From the NCBI GenBank assembly GCA_951812955.1, contig OX638340.1, positions 736,001-800,000 on the forward strand: a stretch of DNA of 64,000 bases, given 5' to 3'. The DNA is from an uncultured Gemmatimonadota bacterium. GTDB taxonomy: Bacteria > JAAXHH01. The notes below the pieces were generated by a model. That model saw only the letters and a list, made by a program, of their open reading frames with translations, ran no database searches and was not told the DNA's origin. The translations under genes were made by a program, and so were the position numbers. The stretch's first letter is position 1. Each line of letters begins with the position of its first letter. Shown here piece by piece: positions 2,696-57,404 of the stretch.

Positions 2696-2757
2696 GGAGT
2701 CTCCGGATGATGTAACCGCGATCACGCGATCGTAAGAACCTTAGAACGTGAACTACG

Positions 2758-2807
2758 AGTACCGAGGAACTGGAACTTCCAGTACCGATTAACCTGCAGT
2801 ACCGATT
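2758..2807. promoter_or_regulatory. palindrome CTGGAACTTCCAG (2770-2782) plus three direct copies of AGTACCGA(T/G) in the purD/ctpA divergent intergenic region
   Basis: Seen directly in the sequence. AGTACCGAGG is at 2758, CAGTACCGATT at 2780 and CAGTACCGATT at 2797. The spacer region is AT-richer and carries a TTGACA-N17-TAGTAT candidate promoter at 3145-3173. Confidence 0.3.
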
Positions 2808-3287
2808 CGATCCGGTTCGTGCGAGTTGAAGACGTACGTCTCGATTGCATCTGAATTCTGAATGGGTTTACGGTGAAACCAAATCCGGTACGCGTGCGTT
2901 CTTACAATTGTCATTAAGGAATTGCTATAAAGGAACGAGTGCGTCTATCTAATATGAATACTCGTAGTTTGACGGAAATGAATACCCGCATTTTGAAGAA
3001 ATCCGGGGTGATCGCGATGCCGGATGGAATCCACCCGGATACCAGGTTCCATGACGATCTGCGAGATCGCCAAAGTTAAAGAAATACGAAGGAAGTGTCA
3101 AGGCGGGAACTTAAAAACACTGCCGCGAAATGCCCCGAAAACCATTGACACGGAACATCTTCGCGTTAGTATTGTCTAGTGCTTCAAAAACGATATACGC
3201 ACGCCTTCGAATGAACCCGAAAAGACGTTTCCGGTGCGAGACCGTTTACATCCCGGACAGAAGACCGGGACGAAGGAGTAAGGCCTT

Positions 3288-11701: not shown

Positions 11702-12678
11702 GCGTGCCGAGCGTACACTTCGACGTCCATTACTTTGCCGGCCGACCTGAACTGCTTCCGCAGCGTAGCTTCATGGATGAATCCCGCGTCTCGCAGTGCC
11801 GCGCTCTTCGGGCCGTCGTCCGGTTCAACATGGCAGATTACCTTGCGTCCGGTCGGAAGAGCAAATGAATCGAGCAGTGGCTTCAGTTGCGCCGTAAAGG
11901 CGGAATGAACGGCCAGATCGAGGAGAAAGGTCTCGCCGCGCCAGCGGGTATCGGGCGCCAGGGTCGCGTAACCCGTGACCGCTCCGCGCTCCGTGACCAT
12001 CAGCCGGACCTGGACATCATCCGCTTCCCGTGTTTGCTTCATCAGCCCCAGGTAGGCCCCCTCGAACATGCGCGGTCCGATATGTCCCAGTCCGACGTTA
12101 CGCAGGGAAGGCGGACCGGACTGTGCGCAGAACACGTTAAGCGAAGGCCAGTTCTTCCAGTCCCCAGGGACCACGCGAGCCCTGCCTCCGCGGAAATGTT
12201 CCCGCTCGTACGCCGCGTGCTCCATGTACTTCATGTGACCCGATTCCGGCTCGACGCTACGGAAACCGAAGCCGTGGTAGAGGTAATAGGGATGGGTATC
12301 GTAGCCGGTGGACAGCGTAAGGTACCGGCCGTCCCGGGCTTTGAAATCGGCCATCTGCTCGGTCATTACGAGCCGCGCTACACCCTTGCGGCGGTGTTCA
12401 GGCGCGGTGTACACGTGGCTCAGGATGCCGATCCCGTCGTGTTCGCTGACCATGATGTTGCAGACCGCCCTGTCGTTTAGACAGCCGAGGTAGAACCTGG
12501 TTTCGAGGGGGCTGACCCGGCCGGCGAATACCTCGTCGAGATGCCACTGTTCGTTGCTGTACTTGTGCGCCAGGATCGGCCGGACCAGGGGCGCATAGTC
12601 GTCATCCGGCGCCAGGACGACGCCGATTTCGAGCTTTTCACCCGTGCGGAGCGTACTGGCGGCGATCTGCGTGTACAT
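11698..12678 (-). CDS. two-domain GNAT-family N-acetyltransferase
   Basis: An acetyl-CoA-binding-like HRRKGVARLV motif in the first domain and a second GNAT-like domain in the C-terminal half. Likely start is MYTQIAAS at 12678; the track ORF runs to 12765. Its 3' end overlaps the mpl stop convergently. Confidence 0.65.
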   Translation of the reverse strand: MYTQIAASTLRTGEKLEIGVVLAPDDDYAPLVRPILAHKYSNEQWHLDEVFAGRVSPLETRFYLGCLNDRAVCNIMVSEHDGIGILSHVYTAPEHRRKGVARLVMTEQMADFKARDGRYLTLSTGYDTHPYYLYHGFGFRSVEPESGHMKYMEHAAYEREHFRGGRARVVPGDWKNWPSLNVFCAQSGPPSLRNVGLGHIGPRMFEGAYLGLMKQTREADDVQVRLMVTERGAVTGYATLAPDTRWRGETFLLDLAVHSAFTAQLKPLLDSFALPTGRKVICHVEPDDGPKSAALRDAGFIHEATLRKQFRSAGKVMDVEVYARHA

Positions 12679-28596: not shown

Positions 28597-30384
28597 ATGC
28601 GAAAAAGTATCAAGCACATCCTCTTTCTCGAACCGAAATCCTCCCATCTGCACGTGTATTCGGACGCGTACATTCCGCGTATCGGCTGCCTGGTGCTCGC
28701 GACGATCATGCGGAAACTGGGTTACGGCGTGCGGGTGATGCTGGAAGAAGTGGAGGAGATCGATACCAACGAGTTCGGGGAAGCCGACCTGATCTGCATA
28801 TCCTCCCTGACCTCGACGGCGCCCGGGTCCTACCAGTACGCCGATTTCATCCGGAACGTCTATCCGGAAAAGACGATCGTGATGGGCGGGACGCACCCGA
28901 CTTTCGTACCCGATGAAGCCCTCCAACACAGCGATTTCGTGGTGCGCGGCGAGGGGGAGGAAGCGCTGGTCGAGCTGGTCAAGTGCCTGGAATCCGGCGC
29001 CGACTACCGCGGCATCGCCAATCTCTCCTGGGTGGAAGACGGCCAGGCGATCCACAATCCGGAGCGACCGAAGGCGGAAGACCTGGACGTGCTGCCCATA
29101 CCGGACTTCAGTCTGGTTCCTTCCGGCCGACTGGATATCATGTCGATACAGACACAGCGTGGCTGCCCGTGGGACTGCAGTTTCTGCACAGTGACCAAGT
29201 TGAACGGGCACAAGTTGCGCGGCCATTCGGTCGAACGCGTGCTCGATATGCTGGAAGCCTATACGAAGATGCCGAATTTCAGCTACCTCTTTTTCGCAGA
29301 TGATATCTTCAACGTGCCAGTGGATCGCACCATGGCCATCATGCAGGGCATGATCGACCGCAGGCTGACCATACCGTGGGCCGCGCAGATGCGCCACGAA
29401 ATCTCGAAGCAGCCGGAGTTGATGAAGAAGATGCGCGAGGCGGGATGTGACCGCGTGATGATCGGTTTTGAATCCATCGACGAAACGGCCCTCGAGCTGT
29501 ACGGCAAGAAAGAGACTGCGCTGGACGTAGAACGGGCCATCGACGCGATCCATGACCACGGGATCGATCTCCACGCCATGTTCATTGCCGGCGCAGATTC
29601 GGATCATCCGGAAACCATCAAGACGCAGTTCGAATTCGCCAAGAAGAAGGACCTGGCGACCTCGCAGTGCATGATCCTGACGTATCTGCCCGGTTCCGAA
29701 GACACCATCCGTTACGATCTCCAGGGCGGCGAGTACCTGAGCCACGACTGGAGCCACTACGACGGCCACCATGCCAATCACCCCGTCCCGAACATGACCC
29801 GTTACGAACTGGTCAACACGGTGATGGAAGGCATGAAGGGGATGTACGCGCCGCACCGTATCCTGTCCAAGCTGGGCAGCGCGGCATGGAACGCGGTCAA
29901 GTTAAACAAGCGGGAGGCTACGCGGCAACTGCGTAACGGCCTGCTCCGGCTGAACGGCTACTCCATCCTGCAGCGGTGGTTCACGGAGCACACCGACTAC
30001 CTGGCCGGTCTTCGCGCCGAAAACGTGTCTCTGTCACCGGATCGCTACAAGCGCGTGCTCCTGGCCGTTTCCAACGTGGACGTGAGCCGCGTGCTCCACA
30101 AGTTCCTGGACGAGATGAACATACGCGTAGAAGAATACAGCGAGGAAAAACTCTCCGCCCTCAAGGATTCCGACCTCGTCGTCATGGCGGGAGAGATGGT
30201 GGACGACGTGAGGGCCAAGGTCCAGAACCTGCACATCTTCCCGGTACACGACAAGAATACGCGTATGGACCGGACCCTGACCCAACTCGGCATCCTCTTC
30301 ACCGAGAACGTGGACAAGGTACGCGAGGCCATTGCCGCAGTGCACTTCCAGCCCGGCCAGAGCAAGGTGGCGGCGAAAAGTTGA
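28597..30384 (+). CDS. B12-binding domain radical SAM protein (class B) with a ~190-aa C-terminal extension
   Basis: N-terminal cobalamin-binding Rossmann region (DLICISSLTS...IVMGGTHPT), a radical-SAM cluster motif CPWDCSFC (CxxxCxxC), and strong GC3 bias throughout. AGGAG RBS present. Confidence 0.8.
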   Translation: MRKSIKHILFLEPKSSHLHVYSDAYIPRIGCLVLATIMRKLGYGVRVMLEEVEEIDTNEFGEADLICISSLTSTAPGSYQYADFIRNVYPEKTIVMGGTHPTFVPDEALQHSDFVVRGEGEEALVELVKCLESGADYRGIANLSWVEDGQAIHNPERPKAEDLDVLPIPDFSLVPSGRLDIMSIQTQRGCPWDCSFCTVTKLNGHKLRGHSVERVLDMLEAYTKMPNFSYLFFADDIFNVPVDRTMAIMQGMIDRRLTIPWAAQMRHEISKQPELMKKMREAGCDRVMIGFESIDETALELYGKKETALDVERAIDAIHDHGIDLHAMFIAGADSDHPETIKTQFEFAKKKDLATSQCMILTYLPGSEDTIRYDLQGGEYLSHDWSHYDGHHANHPVPNMTRYELVNTVMEGMKGMYAPHRILSKLGSAAWNAVKLNKREATRQLRNGLLRLNGYSILQRWFTEHTDYLAGLRAENVSLSPDRYKRVLLAVSNVDVSRVLHKFLDEMNIRVEEYSEEKLSALKDSDLVVMAGEMVDDVRAKVQNLHIFPVHDKNTRMDRTLTQLGILFTENVDKVREAIAAVHFQPGQSKVAAKS

Positions 30385-30530
30385 TGAGGTGACGGTCGGC
30401 CAGCCTGCGGTTGATTCAATTTAGGTCGGTCAACCCCTGCCGTTAATTCGGTTTGGACCGTCTGGTAGCTGCTTCTGCTTACGACGGCACCTGTTGCAAT
30501 AACATCGATATACAGAAAGAGAGATCTACC

Positions 30531-30815
30531 ATGGCCGCGTACATTATCGTGGAATACGTCGTAACGGACGAGGATGCCTTCGCAGAGTTCAGCAAAAGGA
30601 CCGCAGCAGCCGTAGAAGCCCATGGCGGCAGGTATCTGGTCCGCGGCGCCGTGGAAGTCCTGGATGGGGATTGGACGCCGGAACGCATGGTCGTCGTGGA
30701 ATTTGAAAACAGCGACGCGGCGAGGGCCTGGCTGGACTCTTCGGATTACGCTGAACTCAAGGCATTGCGCCAGCGGGCTACCAGAGCCAGCGTGGTCTTT
30801 GCCGAGGGTGTTTGA
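30531..30815 (+). CDS. DUF1330-family small protein
   Basis: ~95 aa, MAAYIIVEYVVTD...RYLVRGG...VVVVEFENSDAARAWLDS..Y..LK..R pattern. Assigned from memory. The track ORF starts at 30453. Confidence 0.55.
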   Translation: MAAYIIVEYVVTDEDAFAEFSKRTAAAVEAHGGRYLVRGAVEVLDGDWTPERMVVVEFENSDAARAWLDSSDYAELKALRQRATRASVVFAEGV

Positions 30816-30989
30816 GCTGGACGGGCCGGTTAGTTCGAAAAGTGCCGGCCCGAATTGATGTCGTACATACAGCCCTGCCTGCAAATCCGTTCTGAGCAGT
30901 CCGCTCTAGCGGATTCAGTGAGATTCCTACCTCAGCCATACTTGAGCAATACCCCAGTCATTTACTGAGCCAATTCTGCATTTAGATCA

Positions 30990-31286
30990 CGAATTTTGAG
31001 AAAATTTGGCAGGGAATTGGATTCCGACGATGAGGCGCGGTCTGTCCTCAGTGAGCCTTCTTAAGTTGCATTCAATCTGGCTGCCATGTCAGAACTGGTC
31101 AGATTGATTGAAGATGGCGCCATAGCGTATCGACATGGATGGCGAAATCGATCGACGTCCATGCACAATCTCATTAATTGGACGTGGTGCAACCCCGATT
31201 GCACGCGCCATGAAATTCTGCGAAATGCCCATCGGCTTGAGGTACTCCTCAAGTAGAACCTCGCCGGGTGTTATGGGTTTTTGCAT
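30990..31286 (-). pseudogene. higA: HigA-family (XRE HTH) antitoxin interrupted by an in-frame TGA at 31089-31091; orphan, with no HigB
   Basis: [48 protein letters not shown] matches the HigA consensus HPGEIL.EEFLEPLG.SQ..LA.ALGV....I..IV.G.R. The ORF stops at FNQSDQF*. Read-through as Trp gives FWHGSQIECNLRRL, aligning with the family's conserved FWLNLQ..YDL tail. Confidence 0.5.
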
Positions 31287-31332
31287 AGTTATTCCTACTA
31301 CTGGAAACTACTGGTTTGGTGTACTACTAAGA

Positions 31333-33003
31333 CTAATTAACCAAATACCATTTTAGGTTCGAACCTGGAAGGTTAACTTTCACTTCCTTGAATTCAAGGA
31401 GATCCAGATTTCCTGTAAATTCACCCCGCAGTAAAACTCCTTGATCTTCATACGGTCCGATGAGAGAGTCTTCCTTATTGTCAAGTTTAATCTTCTTACC
31501 GTCTAAGGTTTCGAAAGTAATGTCCTTGAACTCTCGTGGCTTGCCAATGTCAGCCGTTGCATACACGTTTCCAAGCACCTGGTTTGCGTCCAGAGAGTAC
31601 CTTTGGGCCACAGACTCAGTCGTCGACCTTTGACTGTGCATCTCTATTGTTACCACTTCAACACCATCCTTATTGCGTCCCACAACACGTACAGGTTCTC
31701 CAAATGCTGAGACACGAGAATCGGTAACCGCTGCTATCCGATCATCAAGCAATGGATGTGTTCGGAACGCCGTAAGGTTCTTTCCATCTTCCCCTGTAAA
31801 GTAGTCCGAATAATACCGTAGTTTCCTCAATACCAGGCTAAAGGCATCGATGCCGCGCTGACCGTACAGCCGTTCCATGTACAATGCCGCCATCGCATCT
31901 GCTTCTTCCTCCATAGAGCGCGGATAGCCTTCATAGAAAACATCTGTAGCCGCTTTTGCGAATATGTATGTTAATCCTCCCAAGACCTGGATTTCGTCAT
32001 CAGATTTCCCCGAAGCAGCACCTACTGCCGCAGCGAATATGCTCAACCCCGTTGCTATAAGTTGCTTCTTCTTCTGATTCTGGTAAATTCGATAGCTATG
32101 TCGTCTTTCTACGTGTGCGATTTCATGTGCCAGTACAGCTTCGATCTCCAGATCGCTCTCTGAAGATTCCAACAAACCTCGATTTACGTATACAAAACCA
32201 GTTGGTACTGCGTACGCGTTGATCTCATCGTCTTCCATAACCGAGAATCGATAGTCGTAACCTTGTAGGGGTATAGGCCAGTGATCCAACACGCGTTTTC
32301 CTATCTCCCTTGCCCGGGACTGAAGGTCATCATCAGTCGCCATCTGATTCGCACTCTGGATCACTTGCACTGAGTACAATCCAAGTACACGTTCAGTGGA
32401 ATAGTCACTTACTAGTGGAGTCGATTTAAAACACAATGCACACGGGCGCATTCCCGTTTCTTCCGCTTCTTCAATTGAACCAAAAGGATGCTGCATGTCA
32501 GGATGAGGTAAATGATTGCTGGACGCCACATGGTACATTTTACTATCAGTGTTTCCTATCAATACTTCATATTCAGTGGAATGTTCATCCAACCTGAAAC
32601 ATAAAGCCAAACCCGTTTTAAATGCCTCCCGACCCATTACCGGTGAATGCAAGGGAGAAGAAAAACGAACCTGGCCCTTGCCCAGTCGAGTGCTTCTGAC
32701 TTCTACTTCTATTCGGTCTTCCTTTGCCTTGATTGATCGAATCTCGATCGGTTCATCTTTGGGGATTCGGAACAGATTACGATAACGTCTAGAATGGGCG
32801 TAATAATAGGTATTACCCTCGTGTTGATAGTAAGTCAGAGGATTTTGATGTATACTGCCTCTAAGTATTGCCTGACGTCCTTTTAATTCATTCTCTAGTT
32901 CCTTTACCATCTTCGAGGATACTTTTTGTGCAAATAGGTCTTCAGAAGCCACGAGACAAATCACGATGCACATATACCGAACTAAATTGCGGTCCATAAA
33001 CAT
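31333..33003 (-). CDS. secreted M48-family zinc metallopeptidase (BepA/HtpX-like HEIAH...RRH) with long unknown N- and C-terminal regions
   Basis: HExxH zinc motif AHEIAHVERRHS. N-terminal signal/TM. The gene is markedly AT-richer (~45% GC by eye) than its surroundings. The track ORF extends to 33051. Confidence 0.7.
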   Translation of the reverse strand: MFMDRNLVRYMCIVICLVASEDLFAQKVSSKMVKELENELKGRQAILRGSIHQNPLTYYQHEGNTYYYAHSRRYRNLFRIPKDEPIEIRSIKAKEDRIEVEVRSTRLGKGQVRFSSPLHSPVMGREAFKTGLALCFRLDEHSTEYEVLIGNTDSKMYHVASSNHLPHPDMQHPFGSIEEAEETGMRPCALCFKSTPLVSDYSTERVLGLYSVQVIQSANQMATDDDLQSRAREIGKRVLDHWPIPLQGYDYRFSVMEDDEINAYAVPTGFVYVNRGLLESSESDLEIEAVLAHEIAHVERRHSYRIYQNQKKKQLIATGLSIFAAAVGAASGKSDDEIQVLGGLTYIFAKAATDVFYEGYPRSMEEEADAMAALYMERLYGQRGIDAFSLVLRKLRYYSDYFTGEDGKNLTAFRTHPLLDDRIAAVTDSRVSAFGEPVRVVGRNKDGVEVVTIEMHSQRSTTESVAQRYSLDANQVLGNVYATADIGKPREFKDITFETLDGKKIKLDNKEDSLIGPYEDQGVLLRGEFTGNLDLLEFKEVKVNLPGSNLKWYLVN

Positions 33004-33092
33004 CCTCCTAGTAGTAAGTTTGTAGTTGTGAATCACCTGTGCTATTACCATGTCCTGCTATTACCAAATTTCAGAAAGCTTGCTTTATTAGC

Positions 33093-34502
33093 TCAGCCTG
33101 ACTCGCTCCCATACTTCGCGTCCCCCACTTTCTCCTGAAGCCGCTTCAATTCCGCCTTCAACTGTGTAACCACTTCCGCGTAATCGGGATCCGCGTACAC
33201 GTTGTTTAGTTCGCAGGGATCCTTCTCCAGGTCGAACAGTTCCCACTCGGGCTCGGACTTCGGACCGATCGCGCCTTCCTGTCCGAGGGGGTCACCGTAA
33301 TAGTTGATCAGCTTGAACCGCAGGGTGCGGACGCCGTAGTGGGCGCAGACGTTGTGGTGGGCGCCGTGCATCCAGTACCGGTAGTACATGGACGTCTGCC
33401 ATTCATCCGGGGTCTCTCCCTGCAGGAGCGGCCGGAAGGAACAGCCCTGGAATGACTTCGGGATGTCCGCGCCTGCGCAATCCAGGAAGGTGGCGGGGAA
33501 GTCGACGTTCAGGATCATGTCTCCGTTCACCGTTCCCGGCGCCACCTCTCTGGGGTATCGGATCAGGAAGGGCATGCGCAGAGACTCCTCGTACATGAAC
33601 CGCTTGTCGTACCATCCGTGGTCTCCGAGGAAGAAACCCTGGTCCGACGTGTAGATCACGATGGTGTCCTCCGCGATCTCTTCTTCATCCATATAGTCCA
33701 GCAATCTGCCTACGTTGTCATCGATCGAGGCTATGCATCGCAGGTAGTCCTTGATATACCGCTGGTACTTCCAGCTTTTCTCTTCGGCGGGTGTCAGGCC
33801 TTCCGGTACAGGCACCTTCAGATCCTCCGCGGTGAGATCGCTTTCAACCCGCATCCGGGCGGCCGTGGCGGCCGCGGCCCGGTTCGAATAGTCGTCGTCG
33901 AAAGTCTCCGGCTCCGGGATGTCCTCGTCCTCATACATGTTCGCGTGCCGGTCGTCTGGCTCCCAGGACCTGTGCGGCGCCTTGTGATGAACCATGAGGC
34001 AGAAGGGACGGTCCCGGTCGCGGCCGCGTAGCCAGTCCAGGGAATAGTCCGTGATGAGATCGGTGGTGTACCCGCTTCGCTTCGTCCGTTCTCCCATTCT
34101 GATCATCTCGGGATCGTGATACAGGCCCTGGCCGGGCAGCACGTCCCAGAAGTCGAATCCGGTAGGATCGTGGATGCCTCCGTGGCCGAGATGCCACTTG
34201 CCTACCACCGCCGTCTGGTAACCCTGTTCCTGCAGCACCTTGGGATAATTCAGCAGGCGTCCGTCCAGGTGGGTGGACAGGGTGGTGACGCCGTTTACAT
34301 GGTTATACGTTCCCGTCAGGATAGCCGCACGGCTGGGCGTGCAGATGGAATTGGTGCAGAAGCAGTTGTCGAACCGCATCCCTTCGGCCGCGATGCGGTC
34401 GATATGGGGCGTCGCGTTGATCCTGCTGCCATAGGCGCTGATGGCGTGTGACGCGTGATCGTCGGCCATGATGAACAGGATGTTCGGGCGTGATTGGGGC
34501 AT
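33093..34502 (-). CDS. Cys-type sulfatase (arylsulfatase family) without a signal peptide
   Basis: MPQSRPNILFIMADDH...CTPSRAAILTG (C-x-P-x-R formylglycine motif)...GKWHLG. The N-terminus starts directly at the conserved core. Confidence 0.85.
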   Translation of the reverse strand: MPQSRPNILFIMADDHASHAISAYGSRINATPHIDRIAAEGMRFDNCFCTNSICTPSRAAILTGTYNHVNGVTTLSTHLDGRLLNYPKVLQEQGYQTAVVGKWHLGHGGIHDPTGFDFWDVLPGQGLYHDPEMIRMGERTKRSGYTTDLITDYSLDWLRGRDRDRPFCLMVHHKAPHRSWEPDDRHANMYEDEDIPEPETFDDDYSNRAAAATAARMRVESDLTAEDLKVPVPEGLTPAEEKSWKYQRYIKDYLRCIASIDDNVGRLLDYMDEEEIAEDTIVIYTSDQGFFLGDHGWYDKRFMYEESLRMPFLIRYPREVAPGTVNGDMILNVDFPATFLDCAGADIPKSFQGCSFRPLLQGETPDEWQTSMYYRYWMHGAHHNVCAHYGVRTLRFKLINYYGDPLGQEGAIGPKSEPEWELFDLEKDPCELNNVYADPDYAEVVTQLKAELKRLQEKVGDAKYGSESG

Positions 34503-57320: not shown

Positions 57321-57404
57321 GCCGAAGTGGTGGAACTGGTAGACACGCTGTGTTCAGGGCGCAGTGGGCTTTCGCCCGTGAGAGTTCGAATCTCTCCTTC
57401 GGCA
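57321..57404 (+). tRNA. tRNA-Leu (anticodon CAG), class II with a long variable arm; CCA not encoded
   Basis: Folded by hand. Acceptor GCCGAAG/CUUCGGC, D-arm GUGG..., anticodon stem CUGUG/CGCAG with loop UUCAGGG, variable arm GGGC/GCCC, T-arm GAGAG-UUCGAAU-CUCUC, discriminator A. It is alignable with E. coli tRNA-Leu(CAG) as I remember it. Confidence 0.85.

Follow-up and report, generated by a model that had tools for sequence, protein, structure and literature searches.

Why does a 2.3-kb stretch of low G+C (GC) content, holding a truncated HigA antitoxin gene and a gene for an M48 metalloprotease, interrupt the genome of an uncultured Gemmatimonadota bacterium between a DUF1330 gene and a sulfatase gene? 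The stretch (positions 30816-33092, called the islet below) lies in a 64,000-nucleotide segment of contig OX638340.1 (assembly GCA_951812955.1, positions 736,001 to 800,000) which was analysed as a whole and is referred to as the window. An earlier note on this DNA had read the islet as a decayed, horizontally acquired element. In our view this describes only part of it: the islet is probably what remains of an integrative element that decayed at a recombination hotspot, to which a functional M48 protease gene was added later as separate cargo.

The break in composition is sharp. The islet has a GC content of 0.457 and the rest of the window about 60 %; in a 300-bp sliding profile the values run at 0.56-0.62 before ~30.8 kb, at 0.40-0.50 between 30.8 and 33.1 kb and at 0.55-0.64 from 33.05 kb, the drop beginning right after the DUF1330 stop codon (30815) and the recovery coming at the sulfatase stop codon (33093). 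Nowhere else in the 64 kb do 300-bp windows stay below 50 % GC over an extended distance, the pair of 1-kb bins at 31-33 kb (0.468 and 0.445) is the lowest of 64, with the next-lowest bin at 0.537, and the same region is the top tetranucleotide outlier among 2-kb windows (z = 6.1). The M48 gene has a GC content of 0.45; its GC at third codon positions (GC3) is 0.42 compared with 0.70-0.80 in the flanking genes. The sliding GC and tetranucleotide profiles, which the earlier note had proposed as a check, confirm the discontinuity, and the sharp drop in GC and codon usage that it had described between the DUF1330 and sulfatase genes is real. The features of the locus are listed in the table.

Coordinates of the islet, its flanking genes and the parts of the M48 protein (positions within the window)
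Feature	Position	Strand	Remarks
B12-binding radical-SAM gene	28597-30384	+	left flank
DUF1330 gene	30528-30815	+	PF07045, 97 bits; GC 0.601; left flank, outside the islet
Left-boundary spacer with hairpins	30816-30924	.	GC begins falling here
3' flank of HigA, homologous to L094	30925-30989	-	blastn homology to L094 begins at 30925
Decaying C-terminal third of HigA, past the premature stop	30990-31088	-	in-frame read-on
Truncated HigA open reading frame, 65 aa, helix-turn-helix kept	31089-31286	-	TIGR02607; PF01381 at residues 12-59
Spacer between M48 stop and HigA start, 46 nt	31287-31332	-	putative breakpoint of the HigB replacement
M48 metalloprotease gene, 554 aa + TAG	31333-32997	-	PF01435
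M48 C-terminal beta domain	31336-31722	-	residues 426-554
M48 core	31723-32319	-	HEIAH 32113-32127; Glu363 31909-31911
Ada-like H156/H162/C186/C189 module	32413-32565	-	residues 145-195
M48 N-terminal beta domain	32566-32925	-	~residues 25-144 in the model
M48 signal peptide (predicted)	32926-32997	-	hydrophobic N-terminal helix
Spacer between sulfatase stop and M48 start, 95 nt	32998-33092	-	ribosome-binding site AGGAGG; upstream stretch conserved with L001 and L094
Sulfatase gene	33093-34502	-	PF00884 + PF16347; right flank

Comparison with relatives shows how variable this position is. A search with the radical-SAM protein led to ten related loci in metagenome-assembled genomes (MAGs), and exact-protein look-ups added further ones; the records are labelled Latescibacterota, Gemmatimonadetes or simply "bacterium", several of them with sponge or coral sample labels. 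A conserved frame, made up of carA and the radical-SAM gene on one side and the sulfatase and PALP genes on the other, encloses an interval whose content differs in nearly every genome. In L020 the site is empty, just 58 bp with a terminator hairpin separating the radical-SAM stop codon from that of the sulfatase gene. L012 carries VapB, HigA (99 aa), HigB (PF05015, E 4e-16) and a 60-aa C-terminal fragment of a tyrosine integrase (positions 125-170 of the 172 of PF00589), while L015 has VapC (PIN), VapB and HigA, L017 has HigA and a HigB relic, L014 a DUF1330 gene, an AAA_14/DUF4143 ATPase and HigA, and L019 an ATPase and an integrase relic. The M48 gene occupies the same position in five lineages: alone in L001/L018, with VapB and intact HigA in L004/L005, with VapC, VapB and intact HigA in L096, with a DUF1330 gene and a frameshifted HigA in L094, and with a DUF1330 gene and the truncated HigA in the window. 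Its place is always the one that HigB and the integrase relic take elsewhere. The DUF1330 gene is itself found in L013, L014 and L094 and is missing from L001, L004, L096 and L020.

On composition and on presence or absence among relatives, the segment between the DUF1330 and sulfatase genes is thus accessory and foreign, as the earlier note had proposed. That note had also reasoned that the same segment with the same composition in relatives would speak against an acquisition, and taken to the letter this is what the five lineages display (GC 0.43-0.46). However, the presence of the gene in five lineages does not refute acquisition, as it is missing from other close relatives or the site is empty in them. 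Nor is the low-GC block likely to be a chimera created by metagenome assembly: the source is an assembly of the MAG type, but its junctions are found again in independent assemblies and samples, multi-megabase contigs among them (L001/L002/L003/L018; L004/L005; L094/L095; L096), which leaves this explanation a practically negligible probability.

How such an interval may have been opened can be read from the sulfatase gene. Conservation of the protein reaches as far as ...KVGDxxY, beyond which almost every locus has a different short tail (the window, L001, L004, L014, L015, L017, L019, L020, L094 and L096 were compared), the tail of the window being ...KYGSESG-stop at ~33093-33120. The variants include YGG, YGSESG, YGEDAC, YRGKTEP and YDVQQMD, each followed by a stop, as well as a 15-residue tail and others. 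Nucleotide homology between the window and the M48-less loci begins only at 33119-33133, that is, 26-40 nt inside the sulfatase gene, and the varying tails mark a putative recurrent breakpoint within its last codons. In L013 and L094 a pseudo-copy of 60-110 nt of the sulfatase 3' end stands right after the DUF1330 gene; the relic of L094 ends ...TATGGCGGTGGGTTAG with the tail YGGG-stop, close to the YGG-stop of the empty site, and both relics look like an old duplication of an attachment (att) site. The left border of the window (30816-30924) has no copy of the sulfatase 3' end and no similarity to the relics of L094 and L013 or to the end of its own sulfatase gene.

An integrase fragment beside the target, a displaced 3' end at the far border and replacement tails argue together that the sulfatase 3' end was the insertion site of an element. 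Between the sulfatase gene and the radical-SAM gene (plus DUF1330), which converge, this lineage of MAGs, sponge- and coral-associated according to their labels, would accordingly have a recombination hotspot. As a first event, an integrative element of the tyrosine-recombinase type would have entered the sulfatase 3' end with HigB-HigA and VapB-VapC modules and sometimes an AAA_14/DUF4143 ATPase, given the sulfatase a replacement C-terminal tail and pushed the original 3' end out to its own far border. It would then have decayed in different ways in different species, relic and integrase being lost in the window. Islands that tyrosine recombinases insert into the 3' end of a gene offer the closest parallel: they share the compositional contrast, the presence/absence pattern and, in the relatives, the target-adjacent integrase fragment, the displaced 3' end and the replacement tails. 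Here, however, the target is a sulfatase gene and not a tRNA gene, and the window's mobility functions and att relic have been erased so that only ~2.3 kb are left. The only tRNA gene in the window is at 57321, and a search for Rfam RNA elements in the window gave no match.

What the window appears to retain of the element is the antitoxin. Its reading frame matches TIGR02607 with 70.4 bits (cut-off 47.7), over profile positions 1-65 of 81 only, and is ended by an in-frame TGA at a conserved tryptophan, Trp66 (...SDQF-stop-HG... versus ...SDQFWHG... in orthologues). Intact orthologues have 99 aa and the window frame falls short of that, although the homology continues in frame past the TGA to ~30993. 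The 33 codons beyond the stop are in poor condition: 12/33 are identical to L004 compared with 28/33 among intact orthologues, and overall they are 36-45 % identical to the intact orthologues with a nonsynonymous divergence (dN) of 0.37-0.45, versus 85 % identity and a dN of 0.07-0.085 for the same codons among the latter. Decay to this extent implies that the truncation is not recent. Codons 1-65 are 85-89 % identical to intact orthologues (94-97 % among those), with a ratio of nonsynonymous to synonymous divergence (dN/dS) of ~0.07-0.11, and the helix-turn-helix (HTH) part seems to have stayed under constraint.

The toxin is gone. Searches of the window with the relatives' proteins (tblastn) detected neither HigB (best E 0.13) nor relics of VapB, VapC, integrase or the AAA ATPase, which bears out the description of an orphan HigA without a toxin partner. 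Compared with type II HigB-HigA modules, the window frame is a clear HigA orthologue, and an intact pair occupies the same locus in L012; the differences are that the toxin is absent with M48 in its place, that the antitoxin is cut at Trp66 and that the sequence beyond is decaying. Elsewhere HigA has an independent frameshift (L094), is absent (L001) or is intact (the loci with M48 alleles of group B, described below), a pattern that fits gradual erosion after toxin loss. HigA would have been deprived of both its toxin and its own promoter, and in the window a nonsense mutation at Trp66 would have left a 65-aa HTH protein.

Does the protease belong to this decay? One possibility is that a single acquired element left all 2.3 kb, with the protease, as an inert and decaying remnant, as a truncated and toxin-less HigA, an atypical composition and the loss of every mobility gene from the window might suggest. 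The state of the M48 gene argues otherwise. It is full length in 6/6 alleles of the low-GC group, its catalytic residues and those invariant in the family are kept, and its dN/dS is 0.091 against L001 and 0.054 against L004, values of the same order as those of the sulfatase, radical-SAM, carA and PALP flanks (0.06-0.11). Moreover, M48 alleles and their junctions with HigA differ in history from HigA itself, which stands at this locus without M48 in many relatives. An inert remnant is for these reasons quite unlikely, and the sequence comparisons indicate that the M48 gene is functional and under purifying selection. The earlier idea of a decayed acquired element therefore stands for the remnant of the carrier, on account of the empty site, the HigB-HigA modules, the integrase relic and the displaced sulfatase 3' end, and fails for M48.

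Junctions and alleles suggest that M48 arrived on its own. The window is homologous to the HigB-HigA loci L012 and L017 as far as 31297, which lies 11 nt upstream of the HigA start, and only ~11-18 nt next to the HigA ATG, including the ribosome-binding site AGGA, are common to HigB-HigA loci. The M48 alleles fall into a group A (window, L094 and L001; 86-88 % identical) and a group B (L004 and L096; 92 %), with 79-80 % identity between them, and the spacers on both sides, M48/HigA and sulfatase/M48, are conserved within the groups and different between them. The host flanks of the window are nearer to L004 and L096 (87-90 % nucleotide identity) than to L018 (79-86 %), and the closest relatives of L004 (97-98.6 % identity in radical-SAM) have no M48 and have kept HigB relics. 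Homologues occur in unrelated contexts as well, with 75 % identity in L009, beside cytochrome oxidase genes, and 65 % in L007 and L010, which are Gemmatimonadota MAGs. Judged from these comparisons, M48 would be a separate, later cargo in place of HigB, with a history distinct from that of HigA. In this second event a low-GC unit of ~1.75 kb (M48 and ~80 nt upstream) would have replaced HigB and the integrase, directly downstream of the sulfatase and in its orientation. Sulfatase, M48 and HigA are all on one strand and the insertion removed the hairpin of the empty site; no intrinsic terminator or sigma-70-type consensus promoter was predicted in the 95-nt sulfatase/M48 spacer and, with no terminator there, read-through from sulfatase into M48 is possible.

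A separate arrival also bears on the idea that protease and HTH protein were acquired together as a functional pair, in the manner of the ImmA/IrrE proteases and their ImmR (XRE-type) regulators. In the window, L094, L004 and L096 the two genes share a strand and are separated by 46-51 nt, the N-terminal HTH part of the window HigA is under purifying selection, and 4/39 family members give weak Peptidase_M78 matches. However, the HTH protein is orthologous to the HigA that stands beside HigB in L012 and predates M48 at the locus; it is truncated in the window, frameshifted in L094 and absent from L001, L009, L007 and L010 where M48 is intact. In addition, the M48 protein has a signal peptide while HigA is cytoplasmic, and the protease has no match in PADLOC. 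A pair of this kind is very improbable.

As to the way in which M48 moved, we consider homologous recombination through the conserved flanks, spreading the unit between related genomes, to be the most likely. Identity between L018 and L020 is 88-91 % over the 20-kb locus as a whole and reaches 99-100 % over carA and radical-SAM (L018:8975-11795) up to the hotspot, a tract that indicates recent homologous exchange between species ending at the hotspot. With such a tract, radical-SAM identity was unsafe as a proxy for species and sliding nucleotide identity was used instead. Alternatively, M48 could be a self-contained site-specific cassette, integron-like or other, that repeatedly targets the sulfatase 3' end. 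Such a cassette would fit the occupation of one position, on the recurrent sulfatase-tail breakpoint, by at least two diverged allele groups whose junctions differ, and it would fit a single-gene unit with sharp homology ends whose low GC is kept across all alleles. Yet neither terminal inverted or direct repeats around M48 nor motifs conserved across its contexts were found, and no attC-like element or recombinase accompanies it; for an integron cassette in particular there is no downstream repeat conserved across contexts and no integrase in the window, no dedicated attC model having been run. Homology to L009, L007 and L010 stops at the coding sequence, close homologues are absent from viral contigs and plasmids, and the recombination tract ending at the hotspot favours homologous exchange. 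We regard the cassette as unlikely. A phage or plasmid vehicle was rejected, since the matches on viral contigs and plasmids were only generic ones to the M48 core (27-29 % identity for the viral ones).

A few observations concern the hotspot and its surroundings in other genomes. In L016 (12915-15970), what follows HigA is not the sulfatase gene but one resembling HhH-GPD glycosylases and another for a 681-aa AAA/RuvB-like ATPase, which may be either another cargo at the hotspot or a rearrangement of it. In L018, a long imperfect inverted repeat (11790-11900; GGGCCGTAT...ATACGGCCC) encloses a second hairpin in the 257-bp spacer between radical-SAM and M48; the window has no comparable structure. 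A second variable site appears to lie near the locus: L004 (2683-5318) and L005 (2442-5318) carry, between UvrD-like helicase and alanine-racemase-like genes, a pair resembling a cyclic-oligonucleotide-based antiphage signalling system (CBASS), namely a SMODS/DncV-like nucleotidyltransferase with AGS_C and a Saf_2TM-SAVED effector, and no CBASS-like genes were called at the same position of L001.

If M48 was imported, its base composition should in time approach that of its hosts, and this is not what is seen. In the window, L001, L004, L009, L094 and L096 the GC content of the gene is 0.43-0.46 (GC3 0.38-0.45) on a background of 0.58-0.61; the 65 % homologues have 0.50 on a background of 0.53 (L007) and 0.57 on a background of 0.60 (L010). 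Group-A alleles are about as divergent as their hosts (synonymous divergence, dS, ~0.87), yet their GC3 does not appear to move towards host composition. An equilibrium GC3 was estimated from singleton changes at synonymous third positions in codons of conserved amino acids, a parsimony-based measure with small counts. Changes from weak (W) to strong (S) bases per W site and in the opposite direction per S site were 0.364 and 0.478 for M48, 0.59 and 0.30 for sulfatase, and 0.50 and 0.25 for radical-SAM, implying an equilibrium of 0.43 for M48 and of 0.67 for each of the other two. Behind the lack of amelioration there may be repeated re-import from a low-GC reservoir or else selection that keeps the gene AT-rich.

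A stable low GC3 at apparent equilibrium, together with the same place in five lineages, could also mean that the segment is native and owes its odd composition to needs of function or expression. The empty site in L020, at least five M48-less relatives with other cargo, homologues in unrelated contexts and an allele tree that conflicts with the flanks make this explanation hardly credible.

Several points weigh against a decayed element with a later cargo. The window itself has no integrase, HigB or att relic and the history of the element rests on relatives, among which the integrase fragment of L012 is just under the Pfam cut-off (25.8 versus 27.1 bits). Radical-SAM identity, affected by the recombination tract, reflects species relationships only imperfectly. 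M48 has no conserved flanking repeat or motif across its contexts that would show how it moves. Finally, at a dS of ~0.87 long residence should have raised the GC3 of M48, and the implied equilibrium of 0.43 versus 0.67 does not follow from such a history.

One proposed trace of integration does not withstand comparison. The earlier note had taken short words shared by both junctions as possible remnants of an insertion site. The words exist, with copies of CTCAGCC at 30931 and 33092 and of CCATACTT at 30936 and 33109, the latter right-hand copy falling outside the interval 33073-33097 that had been quoted. The left-hand word, CTCAGCCATACTT, occupies 30931-30943 within the HigA 3' flank, and the right-hand copies overlap the stop codon and last codons of the sulfatase gene. 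However, when pairs of 101-bp windows are drawn at random from this sequence, 16 % of them have an 8-mer in common and 48 % a 7-mer, and a repeat finder returned many equally good pairs in the region. L094, the closest of the relatives that are built like the window, has CTCAGTCGTACTT at the orthologous left position, in the HigA 3' flank and apart from the att-like relic. The shared words are probably due to chance.

What kind of protease was brought in? Translation most likely starts at the ATG at 32997, as judged from homologues and the ribosome-binding site AGGAGG, and not at 33051 as in the listed open reading frame 31333-33051. The match to PF01435 (94.5 bits, cut-off 20.3; residues 227-425) is the only Pfam family found, and the window protein has the M48 catalytic fold: H291, E292, H295 and E363 are invariant in 39/39 aligned homologues, as are H156, H162, C186 and C189. 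A model computed with AlphaFold2 on the 39-sequence alignment (pLDDT 84, pTM 0.78) comprises an N-terminal helix, a beta-rich domain, the H/H/C/C module, a helical core (~200-425) and a C-terminal beta domain. The predicted signal peptide ends ...LFA|Q at an A-x-A-like site that is conserved across homologues. From this site and the N-terminal helix, we infer that the protein is exported to the periplasm. Some family members add TonB_C or SPOR domains, additions that fit a periplasmic location.

The protein scores far below the NCBIfam cut-offs for BepA (NF052400; 67.9 bits versus 570), LoiP (33.9 versus 365) and HtpX, and a PADLOC search for defence systems gave no match, which places it in family M48 without assigning it to a characterised subfamily. 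With the periplasmic M48 zinc proteases BepA (YfgC) and LoiP of E. coli and 3C37 of Geobacter it shares the HExxH core, the downstream glutamate ligand and a predicted export to the envelope. It differs from these by the lack of tetratricopeptide repeats (TPRs) and by its N-terminal beta, Ada-like H/H/C/C and C-terminal beta domains. No TPR family of Pfam matched the window protein or the 39 homologues, and the C-terminal region is a domain of beta strands in the model; the earlier remark that this is not the usual TPR tail of BepA was right. For the N-terminal beta domain, the H/H/C/C module and the C-terminal beta domain, no solved structure matched by sequence.

The module (residues 145-195) is related to PF02805, the zinc-binding domain of Ada, and to its secreted, repeated relatives. 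A search with residues 22-196 gave ~91 clusters, mostly of the same 510-600-aa architecture, and the H/H/C/C segment alone also matches proteins built of repeated PF02805 Ada_Zn_binding units. Four of these matches (P0162, P0214, P0226 and P0236) have 3-7 units in tandem, in one case combined with a staphylococcal-nuclease domain. PF02805 itself is reached weakly by 10/39 family members (best E 9e-4), the window protein lying below the Pfam threshold. In contrast to the four cysteines of Ada, the ligands are spaced H-x5-H-x23-C-x2-C, and the module is part of an exported protease, in which a role in DNA repair is not expected.

By analogy with BepA and LoiP, the protein, a predicted zinc endopeptidase, most likely acts on proteins of the envelope or on extracellular or matrix proteins. 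A small OMP_b-brl (PF13505) gene adjoins the M48 homologue in L007 (9302-9856) and L009 (11773-12363), whose contexts are unrelated, upstream in one and downstream in the other, an adjacency which hints at a functional link of the subfamily to small outer-membrane beta-barrels. In L010 (3526-21668) and L011, a homologue of 64 % identity lies among giant WD40-repeat proteins (726-1530 aa), one of them with Peptidase_M60. No relevant publication on the M48 subfamily or on the zinc module turned up in a literature search.

A more ambitious picture would be that of an autonomous, AT-rich M48 cassette, captured repeatedly at the sulfatase breakpoint and held at low GC by selection, through silencer-dependent control or tuning of expression, whose product would represent a new class of exported proteases that recognise host-matrix or envelope substrates through the zinc module and the beta domains in sponge and coral bacteria. 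We give it a small though appreciable chance.

Elsewhere in the window, a 560-bp intergenic stretch (2726-3287) has a GC content of 0.44-0.46 and lies between divergent genes that resemble purD and an S41-type peptidase gene, names which come from reading the translated frames and not from a family search. An Rfam search of this stretch gave no family match.

By itself, then, this is an ordinary small genomic islet, and it changes no current understanding. What is less routine about it is the absence of amelioration and the M48 subfamily, which combines predicted export with an Ada-like zinc module, counts no characterised member and appears to be concentrated in MAGs with sponge and coral labels. 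The locus is also a compact, well-resolved example of how islets are built, in which an element would have decayed, a toxin would have been replaced by a useful cargo and the orphan antitoxin would have eroded independently in sister lineages, by nonsense mutation in one, by frameshift in another and by deletion in a third.

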